Below are positions 18,575-58,058 of a stretch of 64,000 nt of DNA, piece after piece. Every line of letters begins with the position of its first letter. Positions within the stretch are counted from its first letter, which is position 1. The notes beneath the pieces are model-generated. The model was given only the letters and a program-made list of their open reading frames with translations. It was not told the origin of the DNA and ran no database searches. Source of the stretch: Candidatus Omnitrophota bacterium (GTDB lineage: Bacteria > Omnitrophota > Omnitrophia > Omnitrophales > JACROU01); contig JAJDCD010000004.1 of the NCBI GenBank assembly GCA_029261035.1, positions 132,765-196,764 of the forward strand, read 5' to 3'. The position numbers and the translations under genes were made by a program.

Positions 18575-19648
18575 TTATAAATAATATTCCATTTTCTTTC
18601 GCTTCAATTCATCAATCACTTTTCTAATATCTTGCGCTCGATCTTTGCTTGCAACCAAAATAGCATCTTCAGACTCAACAACAATCAAGTCTGAAACCCC
18701 TACCAAAGCAACCAGCTTTGAATTTCCATGTACAATATTTTTTCCACTCTCAATAGAAACTATCTTTTGGATACTTGCATTCCTATCTTTATCTTTTGGC
18801 CACAACCCATCAAAAGCGGTCCAACTTCCCACATCCGACCAGCCAAAATCTCCAGGGATTACAAAAACATTTTTAGCTACTTCCATCAATGCATAATCTA
18901 TTGAAATAGATTTCAGTTTAGGATACAGCTGCTTTAACTTTGTTTTAAAGGACTTCTTCCCAATTTGATTTGCTATTTGAGATAATCCCTTAGAAAGAGC
19001 CGGTTGATATTTTTGTAGCTCCTCTAACAACAACGAAACTTTCCATACAAACATCCCACTATTCCAGTAATATCGTCTCGTTTGCACAAAACGCTTAGCT
19101 TTTGCAAGGTTCGGTTTCTCCACAAAACGTTTCACTTTATATACAGGAGTCCCTTTAATAGCCTCAGCCTTTTTACCTCTTTCAATATAGCCAAACCCAG
19201 TCTCTGGTGTCTTTGCAACAATACCAAAGGTTACATGACATTGATTCGACTTAGCAGTCTGAATACCCGCACTTAAAACTTTTAAGAACTCTGTCTTCTG
19301 AGAAATAATATGATCTGCAGGCAAACAAACCATAACTGCATTTGGATCTCTTTTATAAATAATAGAAGCCCCTAACCCAATCGCAGGAGCTGTATTTCTA
19401 CCCACAGGCTCCACAACAAAATTTTTACTCGGAATTTGAGGAAGCACTTTTTTAATTTCTTTAAGCTGAACTTCCTGTGTCAGGATAATTATCCGCTCAG
19501 GGGGAATTGTAGAACGAATACGTGAAACCGTTTCCTCAATTAAAGTCTTCTTGGAACCAAACGAAAGTAACTGCTTTGGTTTTCTTAAACGACTCGCTGG
19601 CCAAAATCGAGTCCCTGCTCCACCAGCCATAATAACTGCCCAATTCAT
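18575..19648 (-). CDS. manC: mannose-1-phosphate guanylyltransferase
   Basis: Nucleotidyltransferase motif IMAGGAGTRFWP and similar length to GMPs. Adjacent to a phosphomannomutase gene. Confidence 0.8.
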   Translation of the reverse strand: MNWAVIMAGGAGTRFWPASRLRKPKQLLSFGSKKTLIEETVSRIRSTIPPERIIILTQEVQLKEIKKVLPQIPSKNFVVEPVGRNTAPAIGLGASIIYKRDPNAVMVCLPADHIISQKTEFLKVLSAGIQTAKSNQCHVTFGIVAKTPETGFGYIERGKKAEAIKGTPVYKVKRFVEKPNLAKAKRFVQTRRYYWNSGMFVWKVSLLLEELQKYQPALSKGLSQIANQIGKKSFKTKLKQLYPKLKSISIDYALMEVAKNVFVIPGDFGWSDVGSWTAFDGLWPKDKDRNASIQKIVSIESGKNIVHGNSKLVALVGVSDLIVVESEDAILVASKDRAQDIRKVIDELKRKKMEYYL

Positions 19649-19822: not shown

Positions 19823-21181
19823 CTACTTTATTTTTTCCAGAAGTTCATTAACACGGTCTTCGATAGTTCTTCGGATCTCTTCAAGTCGCTTTTCGGTATT
19901 TGCTTCAAAACGCATAACAACGACAGGCTGGGTATTAGAAGCTCGAATCAACCCCCACCCATCTTCGAATGTAACACGAGCTCCATCAATGTCATTCACA
20001 TTGAGACCTTGTCGTTTAAAACTTTCTGTAGCTTCCTTAACCAGTTCAAACTTTCGATCGTCAGAACATTCTCTTCGAATTTCAGGGGTAGCAAAAGTTT
20101 GAGGGATTTCCGAAAGCATTTCTGATAGTGATTTATCCGAGTTTGCAACAATCTCTAATAACCGACAAGCCGTATAAACACCACTATCAAAACCAAACCA
20201 TCTGTCTTGATAAAAAATGTGCCCACTCATCTCTCCCGCTAACTCAGAATCCGTCTCTTTCATTTTTGCTTTAATTAAAGAGTGCCCTGTTTTCCACATA
20301 ATGGCTTTACCACCATGAGCTTCGATATCTTCATACATCAAGTTGCTGCATTTAACATCTCCAATAATCGTAGCTCCCTTTTTCCTTGATAAAACTTCTC
20401 TAGCAAGCAAGATCATCAAGCGATCACCAAACACGATATTTCCTTCGTTGTCCACAACGCCAACACGATCACCATCTCCATCAAAAGACAATCCTAAATC
20501 CACCTTGGATTTTTTAACTTTCCCTATCAATTCTTCTAGATTTTTAGGGACCGTAGGATCTGCTGGATGATTAGGGAATGTTCCATCAAGCTCTGTGTAC
20601 ATTTCCTCTGTCTTACACCCCAACTTCTTAAATACTTCAGGAGCTACAACCCCCGCCATTCCATTCGCACAATCTATAATAATAGACAGTTTTTTCTTCA
20701 ACTTAATTTGACTCACAATTTCATCAATATATTTATCTAAAATTTTAACGGAAGATGCCTTCCCTTTCCCTTCAAGAAAAGTTCCAAGTTGCATCATCTT
20801 ATACAACCCCTGAATCTCTGAGCCATGCATCGACGTCGTACCCACACAAATTTTTAAACCATTGTGATCCGGAGGATTATGACTGCCCGTCACCATAATT
20901 CCACCATCCACTTTCAAATGATGAATCGAATAATAAAGAGCCGGCGTCGTAACTAGACCTAAACGCTTTACATCCATCCCCGTCGAAGTGATCCCATCCA
21001 CTAACGCTTTCTCAATTCTTTTGGAACTAACACGACAGTCATGACCGACCGTCACAACTTTCTTCTTTGCATGCTTCAGCTGAGTTCCATAGGCTTTACC
21101 AATCGCTTCAACAACCTCTGAGGTCAAATCCGTATCAGCAACCCCTCTAATATCATATTCTCTAAAAATTTGTGGGTTCAT
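19823..21181 (-). CDS. manB: phosphomannomutase/phosphoglucomutase
   Basis: Active-site phosphoserine loop TGSHNPPDHNGLK and metal-binding loop FDGDGDR. Confidence 0.85.
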   Translation of the reverse strand: MNPQIFREYDIRGVADTDLTSEVVEAIGKAYGTQLKHAKKKVVTVGHDCRVSSKRIEKALVDGITSTGMDVKRLGLVTTPALYYSIHHLKVDGGIMVTGSHNPPDHNGLKICVGTTSMHGSEIQGLYKMMQLGTFLEGKGKASSVKILDKYIDEIVSQIKLKKKLSIIIDCANGMAGVVAPEVFKKLGCKTEEMYTELDGTFPNHPADPTVPKNLEELIGKVKKSKVDLGLSFDGDGDRVGVVDNEGNIVFGDRLMILLAREVLSRKKGATIIGDVKCSNLMYEDIEAHGGKAIMWKTGHSLIKAKMKETDSELAGEMSGHIFYQDRWFGFDSGVYTACRLLEIVANSDKSLSEMLSEIPQTFATPEIRRECSDDRKFELVKEATESFKRQGLNVNDIDGARVTFEDGWGLIRASNTQPVVVMRFEANTEKRLEEIRRTIEDRVNELLEKIK

Positions 21182-21295: not shown

Positions 21296-21362
21296 CTTGT
21301 TTTAAATTATGCCTGGCCCGCCAGACGAAGCTGAGGGCACGAAGAGTGCCTTAGCGTAGTCT
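21296..21362 (-). repeat. conserved tRNA 3'-trailer element (GC hairpin GTCTGGC-CCG-CCAGAC plus TTAGCGTAGTCTGG), copy 1
   Basis: Shares about 55 nt with the segment directly 3' of tRNA-Arg at 44333-44386. Confidence 0.5.
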
Positions 21363-21447
21363 GGTGCAGGGAGGGGGACTTGAACCCCCACGGCCTTGCG
21401 GCCACAAGCACCTCAAGCTTGCGTGTCTGCCATTCCACCACCCCTGC
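21363..21447 (-). tRNA. tRNA-Leu (anticodon GAG)
   Basis: Manual fold: acceptor GCAGGGG/TCCCTGC, anticodon stem CAAGC/GCTTG with loop TTGAGGT, long variable arm, T-arm GGGGG-TTCAAGT-CCCCC and an encoded CCA. Confidence 0.8.
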
Positions 21448-21634: not shown

Positions 21635-21708
21635 TGGGGAATGGTGTAATGGTAGCACGAGTGATTCTGGTTCATTTAGTCAAGGTTCGAGTCCTTGTTC
21701 CCCAGCCA
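21635..21708 (+). tRNA. tRNA-Gln (anticodon CTG)
   Basis: Manual fold: U1:A72 acceptor TGGGGAA/TTCCCCA (as in bacterial tRNA-Gln), anticodon loop TTCTGGT, T-arm CAAGG-TTCGAGT-CCTTG and an encoded CCA. Confidence 0.7.
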
Positions 21709-21822: not shown

Positions 21823-24800
21823 TTATGCCGCTTGTGCGATTTGACGGTAAGATTCAATTTGCTCCTGTATCTCAGCTAGCACTCCAAGAACACCCAGACC
21901 TACTATCCAAGAGCTCCCTACCTGATTTAACCCTAATTTTCTTAAGACCCCTTCTCTATCAGAAGCCGCTAGTTGAGAAACTAATAGCAATACGGAAAAT
22001 AAAGGCGCTTTATCTAATTTTCCTCCAATGACGGTTTCATCAAAAGAAACAGATAGCTTATCTTTTTGTAGCACAACTTCTTCTCTTTGACTTTTAGAAT
22101 GAAGTTCTAAAACAGCCTGATTTTGAATCCATAAATCATCATAAGGTAACGGCACGATTCCTTGAGCTTTGGCTAATTCCCAAAGCCTTCTGAGTTGAGG
22201 TGATTTCTGATCAAAGTCCAACATAAAAATAATTTTGTCTTTATTGGATAAATTCTGAATTAAATCTTCCAACTCTTCTTGAGTCTGTTCTTCTAAAAAT
22301 TTTTGCGTTACTAGCAAAACTTTTGGATTATTATAATTTTGAGGTTTTAGATTTAAATATCGAAGCATATCTTCAAATTGAATTTCTTTTTCATCTGCTA
22401 AAACAAAACCTTTTATCTCTTCTGGCCAAACTGCTAAAGCTTCAACATCAAAAATTAAATTAGTTACTTCTACTACCGCAACAACATCCCCTAAACTACT
22501 ACCCAAACTTCTATTTATTCGTTGGCTTTCTCTTGAATTATCCTCAACCATTCTAATGTTTTCTCCTAAAATAACTTCATCTCCAACTGTTATAGAATTT
22601 AAAAACCTCTTCCCCTTTTCAATACCCGGAACAACAGCTCTCAATTTTCCAGTTTTGCGAGAACCGTCATTTAAGGTTACGGTAACGGTAGATAATCTAT
22701 TTATTATTTGTAAGAGTTCTCCAATTTTATTCGGATTTTCAAAATAAGGAACCTCTTCTCCCATACTACTTGCCTGAGTTGATAAATCTTCTGAGAACAC
22801 TCGGGTTCCTAAATTCAGTTTTTCATTAAATACCTGGGATAAGCCTGATGAATCAACAATCGTTCCGGTACGTCCTGGTCTTGCTTGAACAAAACGTACT
22901 ATTTCTTCCACTTTGGGCCCCATACTCCCTTTTGGGAATTGACCTTCTTCTAAATATTTAAGAAGCTGTTTTGGCAAGGGGCGTGACAACACTTCTTCTT
23001 CGGGAGAGCCGAAGTTAATGGTAACTTTAGGAACACCGGTTACAATCAATAAATGAGAGAAATCAAGTTCATGTGCTAATAGCTGTGAACTCCTATCTTT
23101 ATCATTCACCCCCTCAACTTTGGTAATATCTCCTAATTCATTCACAGACACAGGAATTCCTCCCCCACCAACAGCAACAACAACTTTTCCATCATTAACG
23201 GCTTCTCTAATATCTAATAAATCACTCTCTAGAATCGAATAAGGTTTAGGAGAAGGAACAACTCGACGGTATTTTTTAGGATCTTTAGGATCTTGAAGTC
23301 TTTGTTCTTTCAAATCCCAAAAGTTCACTTTCCTCAATCTTTCTGATTGTGTCCTAGTGTAATACTCTCCAACCGGCTTCGTCGGATCAGAAAAAGCAGG
23401 GTCATCCTCCCGCACAATGACATGTGTTTTATTTAAATGAAGTTTTGGCAAGCTGATTTGCAGTTCTGTTGAAAGTTCTTTCCAAGCTCTTTGAATATAT
23501 CCAAAAATATTTTCTTGCGTCTGATCTACGATGTCATATAAAGGCGGTAAACTATCTCTACGCCCGCTTGCAACCTCTGCTTCAAAGTGTTTTAGCAAAT
23601 CTCCAACTTGAGGCCCGTTTCCATGAACCAATAATATTTTATACCCCTGCCGATAAAGATCGACCACACCTCGAAGAGCCTCTTTTACATTTAAATACTG
23701 ACTCTCAGAATCTCTCTTTCCAGCTCTAGGCCCCTCTGTCATAATAAATGCATTTCCACCCAAAGCAATCACAACTCTTTTCGATGCTCCTAAACTATCT
23801 CCAAAAAAACTCTGAATCTCAGTAGCCCTCTTCAATAAAGACTTCCTCTCACCTGTCCCTGGCCCCTTAAAATAGAGCTGTCCTAATTTAAATTTTTTAC
23901 CCCCATTATCAGCAGGATTGTTATAACGAATAACTCCATAAAGAGCTCCCATCTTTAACAGAACTCCAAAAGAAGATGTGCTCAATTTTGATGAGTTTGA
24001 AGCAGGTGCTGCCCAGTCATAAATACCTAATATTTCCCCATCTTTAAATAACTTAATTCCTACAATCTTAATAATATCTAATAACTCTCTTTTAGAAAAA
24101 ACATCAAGCGCTTTAGCTTGAATAGGTTTTACTCCTCCTGATTTTCTGTCTAACAACATGAGGGGAATATCGAACCAAGCTGGTTTTTGCCCTAAAGAAG
24201 ATGCTTTAATTGTTTCAATAGTCCCAAAAGCCAATCTCTGGCGCGCACTCACAACACGTTGTCCCATTAAAGCTACCTGAGCCTCATCAGACTGTGCCCA
24301 TGACGCTTTCATCAATGTTGACTTTCTAAAGCCTCGAACCATTGATTCTTTATATTGAGAAGGTTTAAGCTCTGAAATCCGAGGTTGTATTGAGGAATAA
24401 GAAATCCGCTCCCTTTCAAAGAGTTTAGATAATCCAGATGTGTGAAATCCGCCCGAGACCAAGATGGCTTCCGAATGATTATTCTCTTTCAAATATTCTC
24501 TTATTTTTCTTAAAAAAGTCTCGTCCCTTTTCTCTACTTCTTTGTAAAAAGAAAGAGCTTTGGATATCGCCTCGCCTACACCAAATTCTGAATAAGCTTT
24601 TGTTTGGACTAAGGTTTCATACCGTTTAGGCGTGAGTTCTAAAGCAAGCAAGTCTTGAGTTAAATGAAATTGATGTGTTTTGAGAATTAATTCCGATTGT
24701 TCTAAAGAGAGAGCTATTTTTTCCCAGAGTAGGTTTGCCATTCGATCCACTTCATCAAATAAACCTTCTGAAAAAATCTCAGATTGAAGAATTCGATTCC

Positions 24801-25809
24801 TAGAAAGAGCGCTTAGCTGTGGATAATCCTTAAAAAGAAAACCTCTATCCTTAAATCTTGAATAAAACTGCTCTAGTAAAATTCTTAAAGAAGAAACAGG
24901 AGAACCTCGAGTATCATAATCACTGGAAAATAAAAGTTCCTGCAATTCATGAGCCCAGGGTTGAGCCATCTCCTGTTTCAAAAATAGTTGTGTTATTTGA
25001 TTCCATTCTGTTTTAGCTTGTTCTAAGTCTAATACTTGTTCTTGATTTTGAAGGGCATATAAACGAACTAAATTAGGATACTTCCATTGATGTTTTGCCT
25101 CTTTTAGATTTAACCCCAAGGTCTCTTCAGCCATCAAATATAAAAGATCTACATAAGAAGCCCAAGACTCTGATTCAGGTCTATTCAAAAAATAACGATA
25201 GAGCTTGAGAGATTTTTTACGAAACAACTTTGACGCTTGTTTATCTAGCAATAGTTTTTGTTTTTCCTTCCACTCAACTACTTGACTTTCTATCGCCATA
25301 ACTTCCTGAAACAAATTAAAATTTTTCCTGTATTGCTCGATAGACTCAATACCAATAACTCTAAGGTTTCCATCTTGAAGCAAAGCAAGCTCCGCAGCAT
25401 TAATTTCTCCTAGATCAACAAGGTGCTCCAGCACATTTTCATTCAATAACGGATCTTGATCCAACTGAAGGTAACTAGAGTCTAACGTTTCAACAGCCCC
25501 CTCAAGAAAAACAATCTTCACTCCTCTTTCTTTGGATAATCGTAAAATAAGCTCAGAGACTTTTCTTTGCCCCTGCGCATTACCATGAGCATCTTGAATA
25601 TGGATAATATGAGGGTTTTCAGAAGTAAAGGATTGAGAAAAGAGCTTTTGGCTCTGAATTTTTGCTAAGACAGAAGGAATAGAAACTGCTGAAGTCATAG
25701 GTGCTGAGAGAGTACTTGAAGAAGCGAAACCTAAACTATTTGAAGTTGCAACCAAACTCACAATTAAACTATAAGAAACTAATTTATATAAATATTGCTT
25801 TATGCCCAT
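21823..25809 (-). CDS. very large (1328 aa) putative secreted multidomain protein with an embedded carbamate-kinase-like domain
   Basis: N-terminal signal-peptide-like segment. Central region has carbamate kinase signatures VVIALGGNAF...LLVHGNGPQVG...VAVGGGGIPV...DKD...GSMGPKV. About 650 aa N-terminal and 330 aa C-terminal have no recognisable catalytic motifs (possible TraB/GumN-like GGFHTSG region). Confidence 0.6.
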   Translation of the reverse strand: MGIKQYLYKLVSYSLIVSLVATSNSLGFASSSTLSAPMTSAVSIPSVLAKIQSQKLFSQSFTSENPHIIHIQDAHGNAQGQRKVSELILRLSKERGVKIVFLEGAVETLDSSYLQLDQDPLLNENVLEHLVDLGEINAAELALLQDGNLRVIGIESIEQYRKNFNLFQEVMAIESQVVEWKEKQKLLLDKQASKLFRKKSLKLYRYFLNRPESESWASYVDLLYLMAEETLGLNLKEAKHQWKYPNLVRLYALQNQEQVLDLEQAKTEWNQITQLFLKQEMAQPWAHELQELLFSSDYDTRGSPVSSLRILLEQFYSRFKDRGFLFKDYPQLSALSRNRILQSEIFSEGLFDEVDRMANLLWEKIALSLEQSELILKTHQFHLTQDLLALELTPKRYETLVQTKAYSEFGVGEAISKALSFYKEVEKRDETFLRKIREYLKENNHSEAILVSGGFHTSGLSKLFERERISYSSIQPRISELKPSQYKESMVRGFRKSTLMKASWAQSDEAQVALMGQRVVSARQRLAFGTIETIKASSLGQKPAWFDIPLMLLDRKSGGVKPIQAKALDVFSKRELLDIIKIVGIKLFKDGEILGIYDWAAPASNSSKLSTSSFGVLLKMGALYGVIRYNNPADNGGKKFKLGQLYFKGPGTGERKSLLKRATEIQSFFGDSLGASKRVVIALGGNAFIMTEGPRAGKRDSESQYLNVKEALRGVVDLYRQGYKILLVHGNGPQVGDLLKHFEAEVASGRRDSLPPLYDIVDQTQENIFGYIQRAWKELSTELQISLPKLHLNKTHVIVREDDPAFSDPTKPVGEYYTRTQSERLRKVNFWDLKEQRLQDPKDPKKYRRVVPSPKPYSILESDLLDIREAVNDGKVVVAVGGGGIPVSVNELGDITKVEGVNDKDRSSQLLAHELDFSHLLIVTGVPKVTINFGSPEEEVLSRPLPKQLLKYLEEGQFPKGSMGPKVEEIVRFVQARPGRTGTIVDSSGLSQVFNEKLNLGTRVFSEDLSTQASSMGEEVPYFENPNKIGELLQIINRLSTVTVTLNDGSRKTGKLRAVVPGIEKGKRFLNSITVGDEVILGENIRMVEDNSRESQRINRSLGSSLGDVVAVVEVTNLIFDVEALAVWPEEIKGFVLADEKEIQFEDMLRYLNLKPQNYNNPKVLLVTQKFLEEQTQEELEDLIQNLSNKDKIIFMLDFDQKSPQLRRLWELAKAQGIVPLPYDDLWIQNQAVLELHSKSQREEVVLQKDKLSVSFDETVIGGKLDKAPLFSVLLLVSQLAASDREGVLRKLGLNQVGSSWIVGLGVLGVLAEIQEQIESYRQIAQAA

Positions 25810-25993
25810 GCGTAACCACCGTAAATAAATTTGGGTAAAAGTCTAGCATAAGCACTTATGATTACAAGAGGTTATGTAATAAGAATCTATGATTTTTAGA
25901 TTAAAACTATCTAAGTACTTGTGGTATAAGAATATAGATATAAAACAAGATTGCTTGGTACCAGACACCTAAAGAGGTGCCTGGCACTACAAA

Positions 25994-26386
25994 CTACGAG
26001 CGAGGAAGATTGGGTATTTCATAAGGCTTAGGAGGTGATTTTGGCTTTTCAGGGATTTTAGTCATCTCACCCGCACCCATAGCATCTAAAGCCGCTCTTT
26101 TTGCTCTAACCGCTTGCTGCATATCTCCAATTTCCATATTCAGTTTAGAAATTTTGTCTTTATTGCGATCTCGATCTCTAGAACTTTGAATGTCAGCTCC
26201 AAATTCACTTTGTTCTCTAGCAATTCGTTGCTGTTTAAACCTCATCTCTTTTTCCAAATCTTCTATTTCATACTTCAATTGCTCTGCTTCTGATTTCGCT
26301 TCAGGCCGTTCACTTCCAGCATATAAAGGGCCCATAACTAAACACAATACGATCAAACTCAAACAACTTTTTATCCATACATTCAT
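25994..26386 (-). CDS. small secreted coiled-coil protein (hypothetical)
   Basis: Start moved to the MNVWIK Met, which has AGGAGG 8 nt upstream. Signal peptide, then a charged coiled-coil region. Confidence 0.5.
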   Translation of the reverse strand: MNVWIKSCLSLIVLCLVMGPLYAGSERPEAKSEAEQLKYEIEDLEKEMRFKQQRIAREQSEFGADIQSSRDRDRNKDKISKLNMEIGDMQQAVRAKRAALDAMGAGEMTKIPEKPKSPPKPYEIPNLPRS

Positions 26387-26396
26387 AACACACCTC

Positions 26397-26933
26397 CTAT
26401 TTTGCTTTAGGTCTTGCACCATCTAAATAATCCTTATTATACTTTTTTACGATCTCCAAAGCTTTTTCAGCATTTTCCCAACCCATAACAGCCGTTTCTT
26501 TCTCTTCCATTTCTTTATACCGGTTGAAAAAATATTCAATTTCATCTAACTGATGCTTGGGTAATTCATCATAGTCGTTAACATTTAAATAGTACGGATC
26601 CGTACAATGCACGGCAATAATTTTTTCATCTAGATCTTTCTCATCCCGCATTGTTAAAACACCAATGGGTCTTGACTCAATTAAACAACCGGTAAAAGTA
26701 GGCTCTCTTGTTAACACAAGAACATCTAAAGGATCATCGTCAGGAGCATAGGTGGATGGAATAAATCCATAAGGTGCCGGATATGTAATCGTTGAATAAA
26801 TAGTTCGGTCCAGTTTAAAAACTTCCCATTTAGGATCATATTCATATTTACTTCGAGAACCTTGCGGTATCTCAATAATTGCATTCACCAAATTTATTTC
26901 TAATTTCCCTGCTGGTAATTCTGTTAAATTCAT
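26397..26933 (-). CDS. ppa: inorganic pyrophosphatase (family I)
   Basis: 178 aa with family I PPase fold signatures (EYDPKWEVFKLDR...DDDPLDVLVL). Confidence 0.85.
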   Translation of the reverse strand: MNLTELPAGKLEINLVNAIIEIPQGSRSKYEYDPKWEVFKLDRTIYSTITYPAPYGFIPSTYAPDDDPLDVLVLTREPTFTGCLIESRPIGVLTMRDEKDLDEKIIAVHCTDPYYLNVNDYDELPKHQLDEIEYFFNRYKEMEEKETAVMGWENAEKALEIVKKYNKDYLDGARPKAK

Positions 26934-26940
26934 CTTACCC

Positions 26941-27639
26941 TCACTTTAAAAATTGTTTAGCATTATTCATTAACAAATTAGTTCCATATACATTCTTATT
27001 CACTACTTTATAGACAACATCTCTCTCTCGAACTTTGGACTTTGTAATAATTCCTATCTCTTCTCCTTTACTCGCCTGCTCCACATCTTTGCGATTAATC
27101 TGCATCGATTTAATCTTTTGCTTAAAATCGCTTGTTACACCTTTAATATGGATTTGATCTCCAATTCTCAAGGTTCCTTTTTCAATCTTAATTATACCCG
27201 CTTTTACGCCAGAAAAGTAATGGGTAATCACTCCAACTTGCTCTCCTAACCCTGAAGAAGCCTTGCCTTTCACTCTACGAAGGGCCTTTTTAACAGGCTT
27301 CTTCATTTTTTTCTTCTTCACCGCTTTTTTCTTTATTTTCTTTTTTAAAGGCTTCTTTTTTAGAACTTTCTTAACTTTCTTCTTAGCGACTTTCTTTTTT
27401 GCCTTTTTTTTCTTAACCGCTTTTTTCTTAACTACTTTCTTTTTTTTGGCTTTTTTCTTAACAACCTTCTTTTTAACTTTTTTCTTCGTCACTTTCTTTT
27501 TAGAAACCTTTTTCTTAACAGGCCTCTTCTTCTTAACGGTTCGCTTTTTTACGACCTTTTTCTTCTTACGTCTTTTAGGCTTCTCATCCTCACCCATCAA
27601 AACCTTAAATGCCCTAACCACTCGCTTAAATATTGGCAT
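26941..27639 (-). CDS. lysine-rich histone H1-like protein with C-terminal EF-Tu-domain-2-like beta-barrel
   Basis: Residues 20-115 are almost pure K/V/A/R repeats (nucleotides about 27285-27590 are AAG/AAA low complexity). The C-terminal 100 aa (GVITHYFSGVKAGIIKIEKGTLRIGDQIHIKG) looks like a small beta-barrel. Confidence 0.6.
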   Translation of the reverse strand: MPIFKRVVRAFKVLMGEDEKPKRRKKKKVVKKRTVKKKRPVKKKVSKKKVTKKKVKKKVVKKKAKKKKVVKKKAVKKKKAKKKVAKKKVKKVLKKKPLKKKIKKKAVKKKKMKKPVKKALRRVKGKASSGLGEQVGVITHYFSGVKAGIIKIEKGTLRIGDQIHIKGVTSDFKQKIKSMQINRKDVEQASKGEEIGIITKSKVRERDVVYKVVNKNVYGTNLLMNNAKQFLK

Positions 27640-40304: not shown

Positions 40305-42539
40305 ATGAGACATCTCCTTTTTGTTCTATTATTTTTAGTTATTTCTACCCCTTTTGCTGAGGCCAGCATTATCGGAGCATTAGAGAACGTAACTCGACAA
40401 ATTGAGTCCGGAGGTTCATCTAGTAACAACACCTCTTCATCCTCCAGCTCAAGACCTTCTAGCACCACAAATACCAACCCCTCACAATATGAAACTCAAT
40501 ACCCAACACTCATGCCTTCAGACGGAAGCAGTGGCTCTGTTATGTCTATCGATCCAACAACAGGCACAGTGACTCAAAGCTCTTTAAATCCTGATGGCTC
40601 CAGAACGGTAACCGAAACAAACGCGGATGGAAATACAACAGAAGAAGTAATCCCTGAAGATCAACCGGATAGTGCCTCTTCTCTAGATTCCGAAACCGGA
40701 ATCACAACTACTTCCGTTGAAAACCCAGATGGGTCTCGTACTGTTATTGAAACGGATGCCGAAGGCAACATCGTAAGTTCAACACGTGTCCCATCAACGC
40801 AAACAACATCTGCCTCTGCTACAGATCCTGACACAGGCATCACAACAACATCTACTCGAAACGCAGACGGATCTAGAACCGTCACACAAACAGACGCGGA
40901 TGGAAATGTTTTAAATACGCGGAATGAACCCGCTCGTGGTTCAGGAAGATCTTCTGCTTCTTCTACAAATACAGATACTGGCGTTACAACAACTTCAACT
41001 CGCAATGCCGATGGCTCTAGCACAGTTACAGAAACAGACTCTCAAGGTAATACCCTCAGTTCGCGCAACGAGCCCGCCCGAGGATCACGCCCAGACTCTG
41101 CATCCGCCACCGACACCCGTACAGGAAATACAACAACATCCACTCGAAACGCAGATGGCTCTCGCACCGTCACTCAAACAGACTCTCAAGGAAATACTCT
41201 TTCAACACGAACAGAACCTAATAGAAATTCAACACCTTCTTTTGCATCTTCAACCGATTCTAATACAGGAATTACAACAACTTCGACTCAAAATGCCGAT
41301 GGCTCTCGTACGGTCAATCAAACAGACTCTAATGGCAACCTTCTCAATTCTCGAAGAGAACCTGCTCGTGGCTCGAGTCCAAGCTCTGCTTCTTCAACGA
41401 ACACCGATACAGGAGTCACTACAACATCGACTCGCAATGCAAACGGCTCCCGTACGGTTACTGAAACGGACGAGCAAGGAAATACATTAAATACTAGGAA
41501 CGAGCCTGCTCGTGGTTCCCGTCCAACATCTGCATCTGCCACAGATACAAATACCGGAATCACAACAACGTCCACTCGCAATACAGACGGTTCGCGTACC
41601 GTTACCGAAACAGACGAGCAAGGAAATACCTTAAATACAAGAAACGAGCCTGCTCGTGGTTCCCGCCCTACTTCAGCTTCAGCAACGGATACGAATACAG
41701 GCATTACAACAACGTCCACACGCAATACGGACGGATCTCGTACCGTTACCGAAACAGACGAGCAAGGAAATACCTTAAGCACCCGAAACGAGCCTGCTCG
41801 TGGAACAACCCCCTCTTCTGCTTCTGCGACAAACCCAGACACAGGAATTACAACAACATCAACACGTAACCCGGATGGTTCTAGAACTGTGACTCAAACG
41901 GATAAAGATGGAAATGTGTTAAATACACGCAACGAACCCGCCAGAGGAACAGGAACATCCTCCGCCTCTTCAACAAATACCGATACAGGTGTCACAACGA
42001 CATCCACTCAAAACGCAGATGGGTCTCGTACGGTTACAGAAACAGATAAAGACGAAAATGTTCTAGGCTCTCGCAACGAACCCGTATCAGGTACAGCCCC
42101 CTCTTCGGTAACATCAACAGATATGCTGTCAGGAGCACAAACAACCTCTACTATGAATCCCGATAAAAGCAGAACCCTTATCTTAAAAGACAAAGATGGA
42201 AAAGTAATTTCGAAAGAAACTACATATGGGTCCACAGGAATCGTTTCTAAAGTAACTTATAATAAAGATGGAACAGCTTTATTTATTCAAAAGGATGGAA
42301 GAGGTAGAACACTGATGGAAAAATCCTTCGCAAAAGTGCTGCAACCTAAATTTAGAAATCAAGCCATTGATATTCTATTTAACGTATCTAGACCGCAGGT
42401 GTACTCCTTACCTGGTTTTGCCAGCGCTCCTGGTTATCCAGCAACTCCAGACAAAACGGTTATCAATAATTCTTTAGGAGAAAAGATACAAGAGTACGAA
42501 GGCCCTCCTCGCGATTATGATGGGTCCAATTACCAGTAG
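40305..42539 (+). CDS. secreted Ser/Thr-rich tandem-repeat surface protein (putative adhesin-like)
   Basis: Signal peptide MRHLLFVLLFLVISTPFAEA. About 11 tandem 48-aa units (SASATDTNTGITTTSTRNxDGSRTVTETDxQGNTLxTRNEPARGSRPx), then a non-repetitive C-terminal domain. Confidence 0.75.
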   Translation: MRHLLFVLLFLVISTPFAEASIIGALENVTRQIESGGSSSNNTSSSSSSRPSSTTNTNPSQYETQYPTLMPSDGSSGSVMSIDPTTGTVTQSSLNPDGSRTVTETNADGNTTEEVIPEDQPDSASSLDSETGITTTSVENPDGSRTVIETDAEGNIVSSTRVPSTQTTSASATDPDTGITTTSTRNADGSRTVTQTDADGNVLNTRNEPARGSGRSSASSTNTDTGVTTTSTRNADGSSTVTETDSQGNTLSSRNEPARGSRPDSASATDTRTGNTTTSTRNADGSRTVTQTDSQGNTLSTRTEPNRNSTPSFASSTDSNTGITTTSTQNADGSRTVNQTDSNGNLLNSRREPARGSSPSSASSTNTDTGVTTTSTRNANGSRTVTETDEQGNTLNTRNEPARGSRPTSASATDTNTGITTTSTRNTDGSRTVTETDEQGNTLNTRNEPARGSRPTSASATDTNTGITTTSTRNTDGSRTVTETDEQGNTLSTRNEPARGTTPSSASATNPDTGITTTSTRNPDGSRTVTQTDKDGNVLNTRNEPARGTGTSSASSTNTDTGVTTTSTQNADGSRTVTETDKDENVLGSRNEPVSGTAPSSVTSTDMLSGAQTTSTMNPDKSRTLILKDKDGKVISKETTYGSTGIVSKVTYNKDGTALFIQKDGRGRTLMEKSFAKVLQPKFRNQAIDILFNVSRPQVYSLPGFASAPGYPATPDKTVINNSLGEKIQEYEGPPRDYDGSNYQ
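40550..42140 (+). repeat. intragenic 144-bp tandem repeats (about 11 copies, near-identical in the centre)
   Basis: The three consecutive central units are nearly identical at the protein level and at the nucleotide level. Antisense ORFs in this span are frame artefacts of the repeats. Confidence 0.8.
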
Positions 42540-46236: not shown

Positions 46237-49002
46237 CTATTTCTTTTTCTTTCTTAAACCTTGCTGTACAGAAGCTTGAGCTGCTGCCAAACGAGCAATC
46301 GGCACTCGGTAAGGAGAACAACTCACATAATCCATACCCACAGAGTAACAAAAAGAAACAGAAGCTGGGTCGCCGCCCTGCTCTCCACAAATCCCAACTT
46401 TCAACTTTGGATTTGTTTTTCTTCCAAGCTCAATCCCTGTTCGAATCAACTGACCAACACCTTCAACATCAACGGATTGGAAAGGATCTTTTTCAATAAT
46501 TTCTTTACTTAAGTAATTTTCTAAGAAAACAGCAGCATCATCTCTAGAGAAACCATAAGCCATCTGAGTCAAGTCATTGGTTCCGAAAGAAAAGAATTCT
46601 GCATCTTCCGCTATTTTGTCTGCAATTAACGCAGCTCTAGGAACTTCGATCATTGTTCCAATCATGTAAGCTACTTTTGTTTTCTTTTGTTTAAAAACCT
46701 CTTCAATTACAGCAAGAGATCTTTTCTTTAAATACGCAAGTTCATTCTTAGTTCCAACCAAAGGAATCATAATTTCTGGAAGAACTTTAATTCCCTTCGC
46801 TTTTACATTAATTGCCGCTTCAATGATAGCGCGAACTTGCATCTCATAAATTTCTGGATAAGTAATACCCAAACGACAACCACGATGACCCAACATCGGA
46901 TTAAATTCACTCAATTGGTGAACCTTCTCCTGAATGGTCTCTAAAGAAACTTTCATTACTTTCGCCATTTCTTTTTGACTGTCAACTTCATGAGGCAAGA
47001 ATTCATGTAAAGGCGGATCTAAAAGACGAACCGTTACAGGAAGACCTTTCATTGCCTTAAATATTCCTTCAAAGTCTTTTCGTTGAATTGGAAGAAGTTT
47101 CAACAATGCTTTTTTTCTTTCTTCTAATGTATCTGAAAGAATCATGTCTCGCATTGCAATGATTCGGTCTGCTTCAAAGAACATATGCTCTGTTCGGCAA
47201 AGCCCAATCCCTTCTGCCCCAAAACGACGAGCAACCAAAGCATCATGAGGAGAGTCTGCATTCGTTCTAACGTTGATGTTACGGAATTGATCCGTCATCT
47301 TCATCAGCTTACCAAACGCTCCACCCAAAGCAGGTTCCACGGTCTTAACTTGTCCTAAGTAAACTTCACCTAAAGTACCGTCCAAGGAAATCCAGTCACC
47401 TTCTTTAACAACTTTTTTAGCTGTCTTAAATGATTTAGTTTTATAATCGATTACGATATCACTCGTACCCGCAACACAGGTTTTACCCATACCACGAGCA
47501 ACCACAGCCGCATGAGAAGTCATTCCTCCACGAGCGGTCAAGATACCTTGAGCTGCATCCATTCCGGCAATATCTTCAGGAGAGGTTTCAACACGAACCA
47601 AAATTACCTTTTCTCCCTTTTTAGCCAACTCTTCAGCATGCTCTGCAGTAAATACAACCACACCACTTGCAGCCCCTGGAGAAGCAGGCAATCCCTTAGC
47701 AATTTTGTCTTTCTTTGCGTTAGGGTCAAATGTAGGATGAAGCAATTGATCCAACTGTTTTGGATCCACACGAAGAATCGCTTCTTTATCGTTAATTAAT
47801 TTTTCTTTCACAAGATCACAAGCAATATTAACAGCAGCCATCGCTGTTCTTTTACCTGATCTTGTTTGCAAGAAATAAAGAGTTCCTTCTTGAATCGTAA
47901 ACTCCATATCTTGCATGTCTCTGTAATGTTTTTCCAATCGGTCTTTAATCTGAACCAATTGCTTGTAAACTACTGGATTTTCTTTTTGTAATAAAGGAAG
48001 TGGTTTTGGTGTACGAATACCAGCAACAACATCTTCCCCTTGTGCGTTCATCAAATACTCCCCGTAGAAATAATTTGCACCGGTAGATGGGTCACGAGAA
48101 AAACAAACACCTGTTCCAGAGGTATCACCCATGTTACCGAAAACCATTGCTTGTACGTTAACCGCTGTTCCGATTAACCCACGGATGTCATTCAACTCAC
48201 GATACTTGTTTGCTCTTGGGTTATGCCAAGATTTAAATACCGCATTGATTGACTTACGTAATTGGTCTTTTGGATTCGTTGGAAAATCTTCTCCAGTTTT
48301 CTTACGAACTAACTTTTTATATGAAGAAACAACTTGCTTCAAATCAGCTGTTGTTAACTCCGTATCTTGAGCTGCATTTACTTCTTCTTTCTTTGCTTCC
48401 AAGATATGTTCAAAATCATGATGATCAATTTCCATCACAACGTTTCCAAACATTTGCATAAAACGACGGTAACTATCCCATGCGAATCGTTCGTTTCCTG
48501 TTTTTACAATCAGCCCTTGAACCGATTCTTCATTAAGACCCAAATTCAAAATCGTATCCATCATACCTGGCATTGAAGCTGCTGCACCAGAACGAACAGA
48601 AACAAGTAATGGATTATTAGAGTCACCAAATTTTGCACCGAATGCTTTTTCTAATTTTTCGATATTCGTATTAATTTGCGCTTCTAGCCCTGATGGCCAT
48701 TTGCGTCCACTCTTGTAATAAAGATCACAAACTTCTGTTGTGATTGTAAACCCTGGAGGAACCGGAATTCCCAAGTTAACCATCTCGGCCAAGTTAGCTC
48801 CCTTACCACCAAGAAGCTCTTTCATTCCTTGTTTACCTTCAGATTTTTTGTTTCCAAAAAAGTATACGTATTTTGTCTTAGAAGCACTTTTAGCTTTAGA
48901 CTTCTTTTTAGCAGGCTTTTTAGCTGCTGGTTTTGCTTTTGTTTTCTTCTTCACTGTTGTCTTCCCCTTTTTCTTAGGTTTTGCTTTCAATAATGTAGCC
49001 AT
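46237..49002 (-). CDS. ppdK: pyruvate, phosphate dikinase with about 45-aa lysine-rich N-terminal extension
   Basis: PPDK/PEP-utilising enzyme motifs (GGMTSHAAVVARGMGKTCV phospho-His domain and a C-terminal PEP-binding TIM barrel). The N-terminus MATLLKAKPKKKGKTTVKKKTKAKPAAKKPAKKKSKAK is histone-like. Confidence 0.85.
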   Translation of the reverse strand: MATLLKAKPKKKGKTTVKKKTKAKPAAKKPAKKKSKAKSASKTKYVYFFGNKKSEGKQGMKELLGGKGANLAEMVNLGIPVPPGFTITTEVCDLYYKSGRKWPSGLEAQINTNIEKLEKAFGAKFGDSNNPLLVSVRSGAAASMPGMMDTILNLGLNEESVQGLIVKTGNERFAWDSYRRFMQMFGNVVMEIDHHDFEHILEAKKEEVNAAQDTELTTADLKQVVSSYKKLVRKKTGEDFPTNPKDQLRKSINAVFKSWHNPRANKYRELNDIRGLIGTAVNVQAMVFGNMGDTSGTGVCFSRDPSTGANYFYGEYLMNAQGEDVVAGIRTPKPLPLLQKENPVVYKQLVQIKDRLEKHYRDMQDMEFTIQEGTLYFLQTRSGKRTAMAAVNIACDLVKEKLINDKEAILRVDPKQLDQLLHPTFDPNAKKDKIAKGLPASPGAASGVVVFTAEHAEELAKKGEKVILVRVETSPEDIAGMDAAQGILTARGGMTSHAAVVARGMGKTCVAGTSDIVIDYKTKSFKTAKKVVKEGDWISLDGTLGEVYLGQVKTVEPALGGAFGKLMKMTDQFRNINVRTNADSPHDALVARRFGAEGIGLCRTEHMFFEADRIIAMRDMILSDTLEERKKALLKLLPIQRKDFEGIFKAMKGLPVTVRLLDPPLHEFLPHEVDSQKEMAKVMKVSLETIQEKVHQLSEFNPMLGHRGCRLGITYPEIYEMQVRAIIEAAINVKAKGIKVLPEIMIPLVGTKNELAYLKKRSLAVIEEVFKQKKTKVAYMIGTMIEVPRAALIADKIAEDAEFFSFGTNDLTQMAYGFSRDDAAVFLENYLSKEIIEKDPFQSVDVEGVGQLIRTGIELGRKTNPKLKVGICGEQGGDPASVSFCYSVGMDYVSCSPYRVPIARLAAAQASVQQGLRKKKK

Positions 49003-55643: not shown

Positions 55644-58058
55644 CTAAAATGGTAAAGAAGATTTATTTTTAAGTAAATAATATTTTGCATGTGCAATCAA
55701 GAAAACCTTGTTTCTAAAGAAAAAGAACCTTTTTTCTCCTAACTTCTTTTTCAAAATCTTAACATCATCGAATGGTTTATCGGCCTTTTTATCATAACCT
55801 AGCATGTAACTCTTATTAAACAAAGTCTCTATTAGCTTCTCTTTTTTTAACTGATTAAACTTAAACTCTCTAAGAATCTTGATAAATTTCCTATACTCAA
55901 TCTGCTTACCATGATACTCTTGCAACCTTGTAAGAATTTCGGATATTTCTGGAAACTCAGCCCTTGTTTCTGCTATTAAATTATTATTCAAAAACTCTGT
56001 ATAACTTGTAATAGCATATTTTAAGTCCTTTCTATCTACTTTGTGATTGCCATTATTGATAGCAGACTCGAATAACTTTGCAACAAAATATATTAAGTCT
56101 CTTGGACGCTTCGTAATAATCTCCTGTATTATTTCAAAAGGGTGCCTTTTCTCTTTAAAGTTAAAAAATTCCCTCCATGCTTTTTTTTCTAACAATTCAC
56201 TGTCGGACTCATCCAATTTTAATATATGCGCAAATCTATTCTCAATTAACTTTTTTAATAGGCCCGGATAATCTTCCCAGTTTATATAGTGAGCCATAAG
56301 AACTAACTTATCAGGCTCTGCTACCTCGTTGCGAATATAGTTGAATATATCTTCTCTTAAAAAAATAATTTGTTTAACCTCAACCTGAGAATCTTTACTA
56401 AGTAATTCTTTTTGTATTTTATTTTCTATCTCTAATAAAGTACTCATCATCTCTGATTGTATTTTAAGATCATTTTTGGGATCCCAAGTCTTATCTAAAT
56501 TGTCTGCTAAAACAATCACTTTATAGTATTTTTTTCTAATTGATGTAAAGTAATTACGCAAACATGCAGTTAATGGCGAAAGGTATTCTTTAAAAAGAGT
56601 CTCCATGACCTCGGGACCGGAAATCTCCCTTGAATTTGTTCTTCTAACATTAACTTCTCGAACAACTCCAAAAAAGTTAAGCTTAGTGAACTCTTCATTT
56701 TTTTCTACAAAATTTATTATAGCTTCCTCCTCATCAGTCATTGTTACACTATTTTTTTCATCAAGTATACGCTCCACAATAGAAATAGCTAGTTTTGAAA
56801 AAATTACTAATTTCCACACAGCAACAAAAAAGCTTATTCTAGAAGAATCAAATAGTTTGGACAGCTGAATGTCATCAAGCAATTCATCAGACTCAGGTTT
56901 CAAACTAACAATATAATTATTTTTTTCTTCTGGCAAATCATCAGATAATTTGATGTAGATAGCAGATTTTCCACTACCTTTTCGCCCAACAACAATCGAC
57001 TTTTTATAATTTAATGCTTTTTGATATGAAGCAGTATTAACAAAATAACTTAAGAGTTCCCGACTCTCATTCTCTGCTATGTCACACCCAATACCCAACT
57101 CGATTAAATTTGTTTCATGTTCTATGATTTCACTCTTCTCTTGCGTTGTATCAAAAGCTAGTTGTTTGTCCAACCAAGGACTAATAAATTCCTTTATTTC
57201 ATCAGAAATTTCATAAGTAACCAAAATATCATGGTAATCTAAAGGTGGTTTGAACTTTGCAGGTGCAAGCAACAAAACATCACATCCCCATCCACAAGCA
57301 ACTCCAGCATAAAAAGCATTTTTTGCGTTTTCCATAAATGAATTTTGATAATTCTCTCCTAAAAGATGAATAAGAACCACTCTTGCCTTTAAAAGGTTCT
57401 GAAAATACCAAGTTAATGTTTGATATTTAATTTCAGATAAATCATCTGCAACAAGAGATAGTGACTTATTGTCTTTATAATCAATAATATGGTCCGTAAG
57501 CTCTATTGAATCTTGAGTTGCAAGTTTACTTTGAATATAAAATATGTCTGTACTTTTAGAGGTTAGATTTTTAAAATTCACAAACTTATTTAAAAGATTA
57601 TTTTCAAAGCTTTTTTGCTGAAGGGCTTTCTGGATACAATATGAATTTTTAAAAGGTATATAACGAATATCTTTTAGAATAAATTCTTTGTAAATCTTAT
57701 TGGGAAACCCAAGCTCATTATTAACACTAATATTTTCATTAATTAAGATTAGAATATATTTATTTTTTGCTATAGCATATCCAAGCTCAAACAAAACATT
57801 GTGATTAAAATACGTCAGATCACACACAAAAACTTCACTTCCGTCAATTGCTGAAAGGATTTCCTTACTAATTGTAGTTGTTTGTTTATATTCCTCCCAA
57901 CTTCTAGCTTTATAAGTTTTTTGGTGTTGATTAAAGGCTTCAATCGCCTTTTTAATTGATTCAACATTGTTATCAGCTAACCCATTAGAACGTCCTTGAT
58001 AAGCAAAAAATATTTTTTTTTGTGGTAATTCAGAATTTTTTGATACCATTATTACCAA
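55644..58058 (-). CDS. tandem NDT/TIR-like Rossmannoid domains fused to a P-loop NTPase (candidate defence/conflict protein)
   Basis: Residues about 15-110 KIFFAYQG...EVFVCDLTYFNHNVLFELGYAIAKNKYILIL (nucleoside 2-deoxyribosyltransferase-like FE(L/I)GYA motif). Second degenerate copy ...NAFYAGVACGWGCDVLLLAPAKF. Walker A VVGRKGSGKSAIYI and candidate Walker B YKVIVLADNLD. About 400 aa helical C-terminus. About 29% GC. Confidence 0.55.
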   Translation of the reverse strand: MVIMVSKNSELPQKKIFFAYQGRSNGLADNNVESIKKAIEAFNQHQKTYKARSWEEYKQTTTISKEILSAIDGSEVFVCDLTYFNHNVLFELGYAIAKNKYILILINENISVNNELGFPNKIYKEFILKDIRYIPFKNSYCIQKALQQKSFENNLLNKFVNFKNLTSKSTDIFYIQSKLATQDSIELTDHIIDYKDNKSLSLVADDLSEIKYQTLTWYFQNLLKARVVLIHLLGENYQNSFMENAKNAFYAGVACGWGCDVLLLAPAKFKPPLDYHDILVTYEISDEIKEFISPWLDKQLAFDTTQEKSEIIEHETNLIELGIGCDIAENESRELLSYFVNTASYQKALNYKKSIVVGRKGSGKSAIYIKLSDDLPEEKNNYIVSLKPESDELLDDIQLSKLFDSSRISFFVAVWKLVIFSKLAISIVERILDEKNSVTMTDEEEAIINFVEKNEEFTKLNFFGVVREVNVRRTNSREISGPEVMETLFKEYLSPLTACLRNYFTSIRKKYYKVIVLADNLDKTWDPKNDLKIQSEMMSTLLEIENKIQKELLSKDSQVEVKQIIFLREDIFNYIRNEVAEPDKLVLMAHYINWEDYPGLLKKLIENRFAHILKLDESDSELLEKKAWREFFNFKEKRHPFEIIQEIITKRPRDLIYFVAKLFESAINNGNHKVDRKDLKYAITSYTEFLNNNLIAETRAEFPEISEILTRLQEYHGKQIEYRKFIKILREFKFNQLKKEKLIETLFNKSYMLGYDKKADKPFDDVKILKKKLGEKRFFFFRNKVFLIAHAKYYLLKNKSSLPF

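Follow-up and report, generated by a model that had tools for sequence, protein, structure and literature searches.

A carbamate kinase carried behind a predicted TIKI/erythromycin esterase-like head domain in a modular Omnitrophota protein

Introduction

Known carbamate kinases (ArcC, EC 2.7.2.2) are stand-alone, soluble proteins of about 310 residues. The carbamate kinase (CK) considered here is instead internal to a 1,328-residue protein with a signal-peptide-like N-terminus, which raises the question of what such an enzyme is doing in such a protein. The gene lies on the minus strand, at positions 21823-25809, of a 64,000-nucleotide stretch of DNA from a Candidatus Omnitrophota bacterium (assembly GCA_029261035.1, contig JAJDCD010000004.1, positions 132,765 to 196,764; hereafter the window, in whose coordinates all positions are given). 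The results presented here reveal that the product of the gene is a genuine modular protein, from a bacterium of the Omnitrophota type, and that CK is simply the cargo of this member of a very large family. Members of the family share an N-terminal head domain, for which a TIKI/TraB/ChaN/erythromycin esterase-like fold is predicted, and differ in what follows it.

Omnitrophota are widespread, uncultured and ultra-small bacteria, and their hallmark long proteins have been called functionally obscure in the literature. In their multi-enzyme long or giant proteins, metabolic Pfam domains occur together with signal peptides or transmembrane helices (10.1101/2023.11.21.568195; 10.64898/2026.06.07.730766). 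Among the long proteins with metabolic Pfam domains, 94% bear a signal peptide or a transmembrane segment, and 137 of 916 long proteins have no match in any InterProScan database (10.64898/2026.06.07.730766). The N-terminal regions of the giant proteins are generally without identifiable domains (10.1101/2023.11.21.568195).

Results

Domain organization of the protein

The gene is one uninterrupted ATG-initiated open reading frame (ORF) of 1,328 codons and a stop codon. Upstream of the ATG there are just 11 in-frame codons until a stop. The protein has a signal-peptide-like N-terminus, a head of about 450 residues, a linker domain of about 180 residues, a complete CK and an orphan C-terminus of 323 residues:

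25816..25820 (minus strand): Shine-Dalgarno-like GGTGG, read from the sequence, ending 6 nt 5' of the ATG
25723..25809 (minus strand), residues 1-29: Sec-type signal-peptide-like segment, from sequence features
24325..25677 (minus strand), residues 45-495: head domain, which defines the family
23785..24324 (minus strand), residues 496-675: region of unknown fold between head and CK
22795..23784 (minus strand), residues 676-1005: CK module
21826..22794 (minus strand), residues 1006-1328: orphan C-terminal region

A reading made earlier from the sequence alone had described a single 1,328-residue protein with flanks of about 650 residues on the N-terminal side of the CK and about 330 on the C-terminal side. 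The continuous ORF agrees with this description, and the flanks measure 675 and 323 residues. The GC content at third codon positions (GC3) is 0.22-0.28 in all four gene segments; this uniformity across the domains gives no sign of a chimeric assembly or a recently inserted piece. An internal start signal was sought at the CK junction, and none was found. A public protein collection holds the identical protein (P0001), which is a singleton at 90% identity.

The tripeptides S-L-G and S-M-G occur at nearly every inferred domain border of the ORF:

Residues 25-27, 538-540, 672-674, 1015-1017 (SMG), 1101-1103 and 1105-1107
Nucleotides ~25729-25737, 24190-24198, 23788-23796, 22759-22767 and 22489-22509

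SLG was observed five times in the protein against about one expected (P=0.003). A role as cleavage or linker sites was considered and rejected, since SLG shows no family-wide enrichment (1.2-fold) and in any protein other tripeptides reach the same or greater "significance" by this measure. The excess at domain borders may be due to chance.

The head domain defines a very large family with variable cargo

A homology search with the whole protein returned no CKs. It returned 14 long proteins (847-2,237 residues) from Omnitrophota, Elusimicrobia and unclassified metagenome-assembled genomes (MAGs), which match only residues ~10-493 of the query; further downstream they carry UDP-glucose dehydrogenase, crotonase, methyltransferase, HEAT and TPR domains. 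A search of 1.84 billion representatives of clusters at 50% identity with a profile of the head domain gave 10,315 protein matches at E<=1e-3, of which 7,273 reached E<=1e-30. The query itself matches the family profile over residues 3-517 with 498 bits (E=3e-144). Family proteins are 630-7,683 residues long, and in all 150 of the best 150 of the 10,315 matches the aligned part begins at residues 1-63.

Species-representative genomes (one genome per species), scanned with a profile seeded by a three-sequence alignment, yielded 542 confirmed loci, with up to five per MAG among the 79 listed. Most of these 79 are labelled Candidatus Omnitrophota, including Ca. Omnitrophus magneticus, and a few carry the labels Planctomycetia, Eisenbacteria or unclassified. 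Ca. Taenariivivens and Ca. Aadella likewise belong to Omnitrophota. Among the matches listed, the closest locus is L001, with 33% identity in its best segment; L002, from the same Omnitrophota MAG, has 31%. Scans with the whole protein found no relative in the species-representative genomes and none in the JGI metagenomes.

The cargo is diverse and mostly unannotated. Recognisable cargo includes UDP-glucose dehydrogenase, HATPase_c, PPDK_N, a xylose isomerase-like TIM barrel, a GlnD-type nucleotidyltransferase, a metallophosphoesterase and DUF218. The following cargo is carried without intervening transmembrane segments:

UDP-glucose dehydrogenase: P0004 and P0006
GMPP-like: L063
PMM-like: L079
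Pyruvate phosphate dikinase (PPDK)-like: L016 and L024

PPDK-like cargo is present in at least nine members, namely L016, L024 and seven more, of which L020 and L059 have later transmembrane-like segments. The window also encodes a stand-alone PPDK (46237-49002, minus strand) that is 24-37% identical, over up to ~580 residues, to segments embedded in family members, including L020, L016, L024, L059, L015, P0191 and P0155. The PMM/PGM gene of the window (19823-21181, minus strand) and its mannose-1-phosphate guanylyltransferase-type gene (18575-19648, minus strand) resemble the L079 and L063 segments, respectively. From these resemblances, the cargo of the family seems to have been drawn in part from copies of housekeeping enzymes.

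CK was not found as cargo in 191 family sequences or in the fetched loci, a negative result that covers only the best 150 of the 10,315 representatives and is limited further by a word-indexed search that failed to return the query itself for sub-sequence queries. A search for homologues with the same fusion likewise found no second CK fusion. The head thus defines a very large paralogous family in which it holds the N-terminal position and is followed by variable cargo, often cytoplasm-type, nucleotide-dependent enzymes. The architecture had been thought non-standard. The protein is no isolated case, however: it is a member of a family of more than 10,000 clusters, mostly from Omnitrophota, with the same signal-peptide-like N-terminus and head and with other cytoplasm-type enzymes as cargo.

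Predicted fold and putative active site of the head

The head has an alpha/beta core (residues ~48-160 and ~412-495) that a helical insert of roughly 250 residues (161-411) divides in two. In the core, strands are predicted at 67-72, 99-102 and 447-452 and a helix at 412-443. The structural matches of the head-domain model, each with its score, all belong to the TIKI/TraB/GumN/ChaN/Ere superfamily:

2rad (Bcr135/136-type erythromycin esterase-like protein): 10.0
8bqs_DQ (TraB-family protein): 9.6
HopBA1: 9.4
ChaN: 9.3
2qgm (second Bcr135/136-type entry): 9.0
EreC: 8.7
RRSP: 7.5

On the strength of this model, a TIKI/TraB/ChaN/erythromycin esterase-like fold is assigned to the head. A Foldseek search of the same model against the PDB found nothing significant, with Bcr135 at E=0.1 and probability 0.60.

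Active members of the superfamily have a 2His/2Glu site at the ends of core strands, joined by an Arg in RRSP (PMC6254334). The head carries a conserved constellation of the same appearance, acid-His / Glu / Arg / His, and the putative active site would be formed by D73-x-H75, E103, R428 and H456, the last within GGFHTSG (residues 453-459). In a 15-member alignment the invariant residues are H75 (IHIQDAH), Q81, E103 (LEG), G153/E155, F421, R428, G453-G454-x-H456 (GGFHT) and P476, and D73 is at least 90% conserved. The H, E, R, H pattern is again invariant in 21 further family members. The conserved residues stand directly after the three predicted strands and on the helix 412-443. The GGFHTSG motif had been flagged earlier as possibly TraB/GumN-like, and it indeed belongs to a domain of the TraB/GumN/TIKI/Ere type.

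The head thus shares with the TIKI/TraB-PrgY/GumN/ChaN/Ere superfamily, which includes the effectors RRSP (from MARTX) and HopBA1, a parallel-sheet alpha/beta core with catalytic-type residues at strand ends: an acid-x-His after strand 1, a Glu after strand 2, an Arg on a helix and a Gly-x-His after a later strand. It differs in several respects. In the head, an Asp stands for the first Glu, the core is split by the long helical insert, and the domain is an obligatory N-terminal part of long multidomain proteins. Moreover, none of the Pfam models of the superfamily (TraB_PrgY_gumN, Erythro_esteras, Cofac_haem_bdg) matches the query significantly, whether by sequence or by profile. Its head has no Pfam match at E<=1 and no NCBIfam match, and 15 head domains compared with Pfam at E<=10 have no family in common, with one sub-threshold Erythro_esteras match (E=0.067). 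The head profile found nothing relevant among PDB sequences, only chance-level matches to FliG.

The helical insert (24577-25329, minus strand) aligned weakly in Foldseek to the alpha-pore-forming toxins AhlB, MakE, ClyA, YaxA and XaxA (probability <=0.06, E 0.1-1.5). This likeness is probably a mere resemblance between long helices.

The carbamate kinase module

Searched against PDB sequences with phmmer, the module matched CKs only, the best being 2e9y (E=7.1e-51), 1e19 (E=3.8e-49) and 1b7b (E=5e-43). Six solved CKs were matched in all (E=7.1e-51 to 2.4e-34), from query residue 676 to ~1000 and over chain residues ~2-300, including the protruding subdomain. The NCBIfam model TIGR00746 (arcC) aligns over positions 1-307 of 309 (232.4 bits, E=6e-69), and Pfam AA_kinase (PF00696) over residues 677-976 (64.9 bits against a cut-off of 24.9, E=1.2e-17). 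Its nearest relatives among 5.8 billion proteins are ordinary stand-alone CKs of 312 residues, ~40% identical and from many phyla.

The roles of residues that bind carbamoyl phosphate and nucleotide in CK are known from structure and mutagenesis (PMC3659122). All of them have counterparts in the query:

CK motifs: GGNAF 684-688; HGNGPQVG 729-736; GGGGIPV 881-887; DKD 903-905; GSMGPKV 961-967
Gly-Gly-Asn loop (Gly11/Gly12-Asn13, PMC3659122 Enterococcus faecalis numbering): G684-G685-N686
Asn-Gly oxyanion hole (Asn55-Gly56 in Giardia CK): N731-G732
E. faecalis Lys128: K811
E. faecalis Arg158: R848
E. faecalis Lys209-Asp210: K904-D905
E. faecalis Tyr238: F933 (aromatic kept)
E. faecalis Lys271: K966

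The numbering of the E. faecalis sequence used here agrees with PMC3659122 from Lys128 on; at the N-terminal glycine loop it is shifted by one.

By this alignment the module keeps every catalytic residue. A catalytically competent CK would therefore be expected, as far as conservation can indicate. It was claimed at the outset that diagnostic CK motifs are present and that the domain is more specific than the general amino-acid-kinase fold. All the motifs cited then are indeed there, and the TIGR00746 alignment, the matches to solved CKs, the nearest relatives and the catalytic residues agree on a CK. ArcC enzymes (2e9y from Aeropyrum pernix, 1e19 from Pyrococcus furiosus, 1b7b/2we5 from E. 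faecalis, 3kzf from Giardia) can be aligned with the module end to end, and share with it the glycine loops, the Lys and Arg of the protruding subdomain, the Lys-Asp pair and the C-terminal Lys. The module differs from them in lying amid housekeeping neighbours and in scoring under the equivalog cut-offs. Known CKs are homodimers and are usually encoded in arginine deiminase or related operons. The module, by contrast, has no arginine deiminase, agmatine or oxalurate catabolic genes around it in the 64 kb inspected.

The N-terminus

Read by rule of thumb, the N-terminus has an n-region with K4 and K9, an h-region from L10 to A21, and a c-region, G27-F28-A29, followed by S30. The 11-residue hydrophobic core has a mean hydropathy of 2.25. 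The same features recur across the family: a hydrophobic N-terminal core is present in 179 of 187 members and a net positive n-region in 178 of 187. The suspicion that the N-terminus is signal-peptide-like has thus held up, in that simple rules find Sec-type features. No later segment of the query is convincingly transmembrane, and most enzyme-bearing family members are likewise without a transmembrane-like segment past the N-terminus. The head domain and the cargo should therefore share one side of the membrane.

The linker and the C-terminus

BLASTP alignments to the L001, L002, L025 and L012 proteins extend beyond the head, to query residues 534-564. Residues ~560-675 have no Pfam match and no significant similarity in the family set. 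In the C-terminal region, a small beta-rich segment (~1030-1095) and an alpha/beta segment (~1108-1250) can be made out by eye, and the tail (1259-1328) is predicted to form a helix, a second helix, a beta-hairpin and a long helix, ending in -QAA. No homologue of the C-terminal 329 residues was found at E<=0.1. An AlphaFold model of the C-terminal 325 residues is unreliable (pLDDT 38.5) and was for this reason left out of the fold search.

Most complete family members (P0148-P0286, L001-L079) share a C-terminal domain of about 250 residues with a strikingly conserved carboxy-terminus, not covered by Pfam; it may serve as a sorting signal, a docking element or a site of protease recognition. 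Of 154 family C-termini, 84 have L as the last residue (mostly DWKxAQDEVLRSL) and 35 have A (-AA, -SA or -WA). The query shares its ending, reached after a predicted helix, hairpin and long helix, with one family subgroup that terminates in -AA or -SA. Profiles of the family C-terminal domain and tail did not match the query significantly (tail p~0.06 by shuffling). The query tail is at most consistent with that of the family.

Genomic surroundings

The CK gene lies within a long run of minus-strand housekeeping genes. Its immediate neighbours are:

21362-21447 (minus strand): tRNA-Leu(GAG)
21635-21708 (plus strand): tRNA-Gln(CTG)
25994-26422 (minus strand): 142-residue ORF with an N-terminal hydrophobic segment (signal peptide), a highly charged coiled-coil-like body and no Pfam match

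Both tRNA genes lie just past the stop codon. The sequence-only reading had placed two tRNAs and a small coiled-coil gene after the CK gene; the tRNAs are indeed downstream, but the coiled-coil gene lies directly upstream of the start, and its own start shares 26 nt with the end of the pyrophosphatase gene. Upstream are found GltX, a protein with an EF-Tu domain 2-like match, an inorganic pyrophosphatase and the 142-residue protein. Downstream, the tRNA-Gln and tRNA-Leu genes are followed by PMM/PGM, the mannose-1-phosphate guanylyltransferase-type enzyme, BacA and TrpRS. An indolepyruvate-type oxidoreductase is also among the neighbours. No arginine deiminase, transcarbamylase or secretion gene and no second family member is present within the 64-kb window, and an Rfam scan of the window found four tRNAs only. 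The context therefore yields no clue to function.

When 79 loci of the family were compared, only dnaX, recR and a fabI-like gene recurred as neighbours, and no secretion system did. In six loci from different MAGs (including L020 and L029), dnaX and recR immediately precede the head-domain gene, which suggests that these loci form one positionally conserved orthologue group within the family.

Several other genes of the window are of interest in their own right. Between GltX and the pyrophosphatase, a 232-residue protein (26941-27639, minus strand) has EF-Tu domain 2 as its sole Pfam match (residues 150-200, E=4.5e-7). EF-Tu/EF-G and ribosomal-protein content has been described within hypervariable loci of Omnitrophota genomes (10.64898/2026.06.07.730766). 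A 744-residue signal-peptide protein (40305-42539, plus strand) without a Pfam match is built from ~13 tandem Thr/Ser-rich repeats of ~45 residues (TGxTTTSTRNADGSRTVTETDxxGNxL…RNEPARG). It is the only long plus-strand ORF thereabouts, the next comparable one starting near 52.8 kb, and it lies in the single island of high GC and A skew in the window (GC 0.459, AT skew +0.18). An 804-residue ORF (55644-58058, minus strand) with only a weak nucleoside 2-deoxyribosyltransferase-like match lies in the lowest-GC stretch (GC 0.305 at 56-58 kb). The GC skew switches sign at ~54-60 kb, where gene orientation turns mixed.

Discussion

The features of the protein can be joined in one reading, to which we lean with a little more than even confidence: it would be a Sec-exported modular protein with a hydrolase head at the envelope or cell interface and a CK that is active where nucleotides exist. 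The N-terminus would act as a cleavable Sec signal, the Sec system would export the whole chain, and the head domain and its cargo would end up extracytoplasmic. Whether in the envelope or where two cells meet, the head may act as a hydrolase (a peptidase or an esterase) and may process its own protein or a partner. The CK module would catalyse carbamoyl phosphate + ADP <-> carbamate + ATP wherever nucleotides are available, most likely within a host or prey cell or at the interface with one. A host-dependent (symbiotic or predatory) lifestyle has been proposed for Omnitrophota (PMC10066038); given such a lifestyle, the CK would work either in the partner cell or in the zone of contact with it.

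Several points weigh against this reading. The enzyme needs ADP or ATP, which is unexpected in the periplasm or outside the cell. No delivery machinery lies beside the query gene, nor does any recur beside family genes in the 79 loci. The signal peptide was assessed by simple rules only. The TIGR00746 score of 232.4 bits lies below the equivalog cut-off of 358.25. Finally, the other window proteins that were looked up and found in the public collection are, like the query, singletons at 90% identity.

The main alternative, though a rather unlikely one, is that the protein is a membrane-tethered cytoplasmic enzyme. The sequence-only reading had proposed both an extracytoplasmic phosphotransfer enzyme and an anchored cytoplasmic multi-enzyme. 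In the tethered case the hydrophobic helix would be an uncleaved anchor by which the head and an ordinary ATP-generating CK are fixed to the inner membrane on its cytoplasmic side; the long polypeptides of the family would be tethered metabolons, and the CK would do its ordinary fermentative job. Such an arrangement would suit the cargo, as CK, PPDK, UDP-glucose dehydrogenase, HATPase and GMPP-like domains all require cytoplasmic cofactors, and it would fit CK catalytic residues that are all intact and a gene of uniform codon composition among housekeeping genes. However, a positive n-region, a core of only ~12 residues and then a small-x-small site are what a cleavable Sec signal typically shows, and such a signal would send the C-terminal part across the membrane. 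Many bacterial and animal members of the superfamily (ChaN, GumN, TIKI) are extracytoplasmic, which also speaks against a tether. Furthermore, in most enzyme-bearing members no transmembrane segment follows by which the chain could re-enter the cytoplasm. Little probability is attached to the suggestion that the module is CK-like without being a functional CK, whether as a diverged domain of the amino-acid-kinase fold with a different carboxylate- or carbamate-type substrate to phosphorylate, or as a module that binds nucleotides or serves as a scaffold. Its scores do fall below the curated cut-offs of all four NCBIfam CK models (besides TIGR00746, NF009007 at 226 against 266, NF009008 at 213 against 361 and NF006926 at 144 against 416), it is just ~40% identical to the nearest CKs, and its context is unique, with no arcA or arcB nearby. 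Yet the alignment to solved CKs is full-length and takes in the CK-specific protruding subdomain, and K811, R848, K904-D905, K966 and both glycine-rich loops are conserved.

A fusion of two or three genes (a head-domain protein, a CK and an unknown protein) by an assembly or sequencing artefact, through a lost stop codon or compensating frameshifts, is very improbable. It would account for a CK fusion that is known from one genome only, with no second sequence of the same kind. Nevertheless, 1,328 stop-free codons in DNA of 36-40% GC include 180 before and 323 after the CK that match nothing else, and the head domain is never stand-alone among family members (630-7,683 residues). The CK junction has no ATG and no well-spaced ribosome-binding site, GC3 is even across the segments, and the protein terminates in the family-typical -AA.

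An exported modular protein of this kind invites comparison with known systems. MARTX-type toxins share the concept of conserved terminal regions around variable enzymatic modules, and their module RRSP has a TIKI fold. The query differs from them in having no RTX repeats or cysteine protease domain by Pfam, and a Sec-type signal in place of type I secretion; the likeness is best taken as an analogy. Closer at hand are the giant proteins of Omnitrophota ("multi-enzyme metabolic clusters", Archaeovorin and dockerin types), with which the family shares its phylum-level distribution, a signal-peptide or transmembrane N-terminus, and cytoplasm-type enzyme Pfam domains in one polypeptide (PGM/PMM, PPDK_N, HATPase_c, methyltransferases, HEAT/TPR). 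Those catalogued, however, have from at least 10,000 to 20,000 residues or more, whereas the query has 1.3 thousand and a single recognisable enzyme. One description of these proteins makes no mention of TraB, Tiki, GumN or carbamate (10.64898/2026.06.07.730766), another none of TraB (10.1101/2023.11.21.568195), and a literature search, limited to one searchable library, found no paper that links Omnitrophota with TraB, Tiki, GumN or erythromycin esterase. The general class of architecture is therefore already known, while the identity of the head domain, the size of the family and the CK cargo appear to be undescribed.

A wider hypothesis, which is quite unlikely to hold in full, is that the TIKI/Ere-like head marks an unrecognised class of exported, modular multi-enzyme proteins found throughout the phylum, with which Omnitrophota nanobacteria would bring cytoplasm-type enzymes to the surface or into the interior of host or prey cells. 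The CK would harvest ATP from carbamoyl phosphate of the host, the PPDK of paralogues would do likewise from phosphoenolpyruvate, and the invariant hydrolase site of the head would process or dock proteins.

Finally, more than 10,000 protein clusters begin with one and the same conserved head domain, which has a predicted hydrolase-type fold and an invariant constellation resembling an active site. The member described here is compact, small enough to express and assay, and its CK cargo is easily assayed, which makes it a practical model for the export, processing and extracellular activity of such proteins. If the modules are active outside the cell, bacterial symbiosis and predation would gain a new theme, that of extracellular or host-directed enzymes of central metabolism. 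If the protein is instead a membrane-tethered cytoplasmic enzyme, the finding would be more ordinary, yet it would still define a large new domain family.

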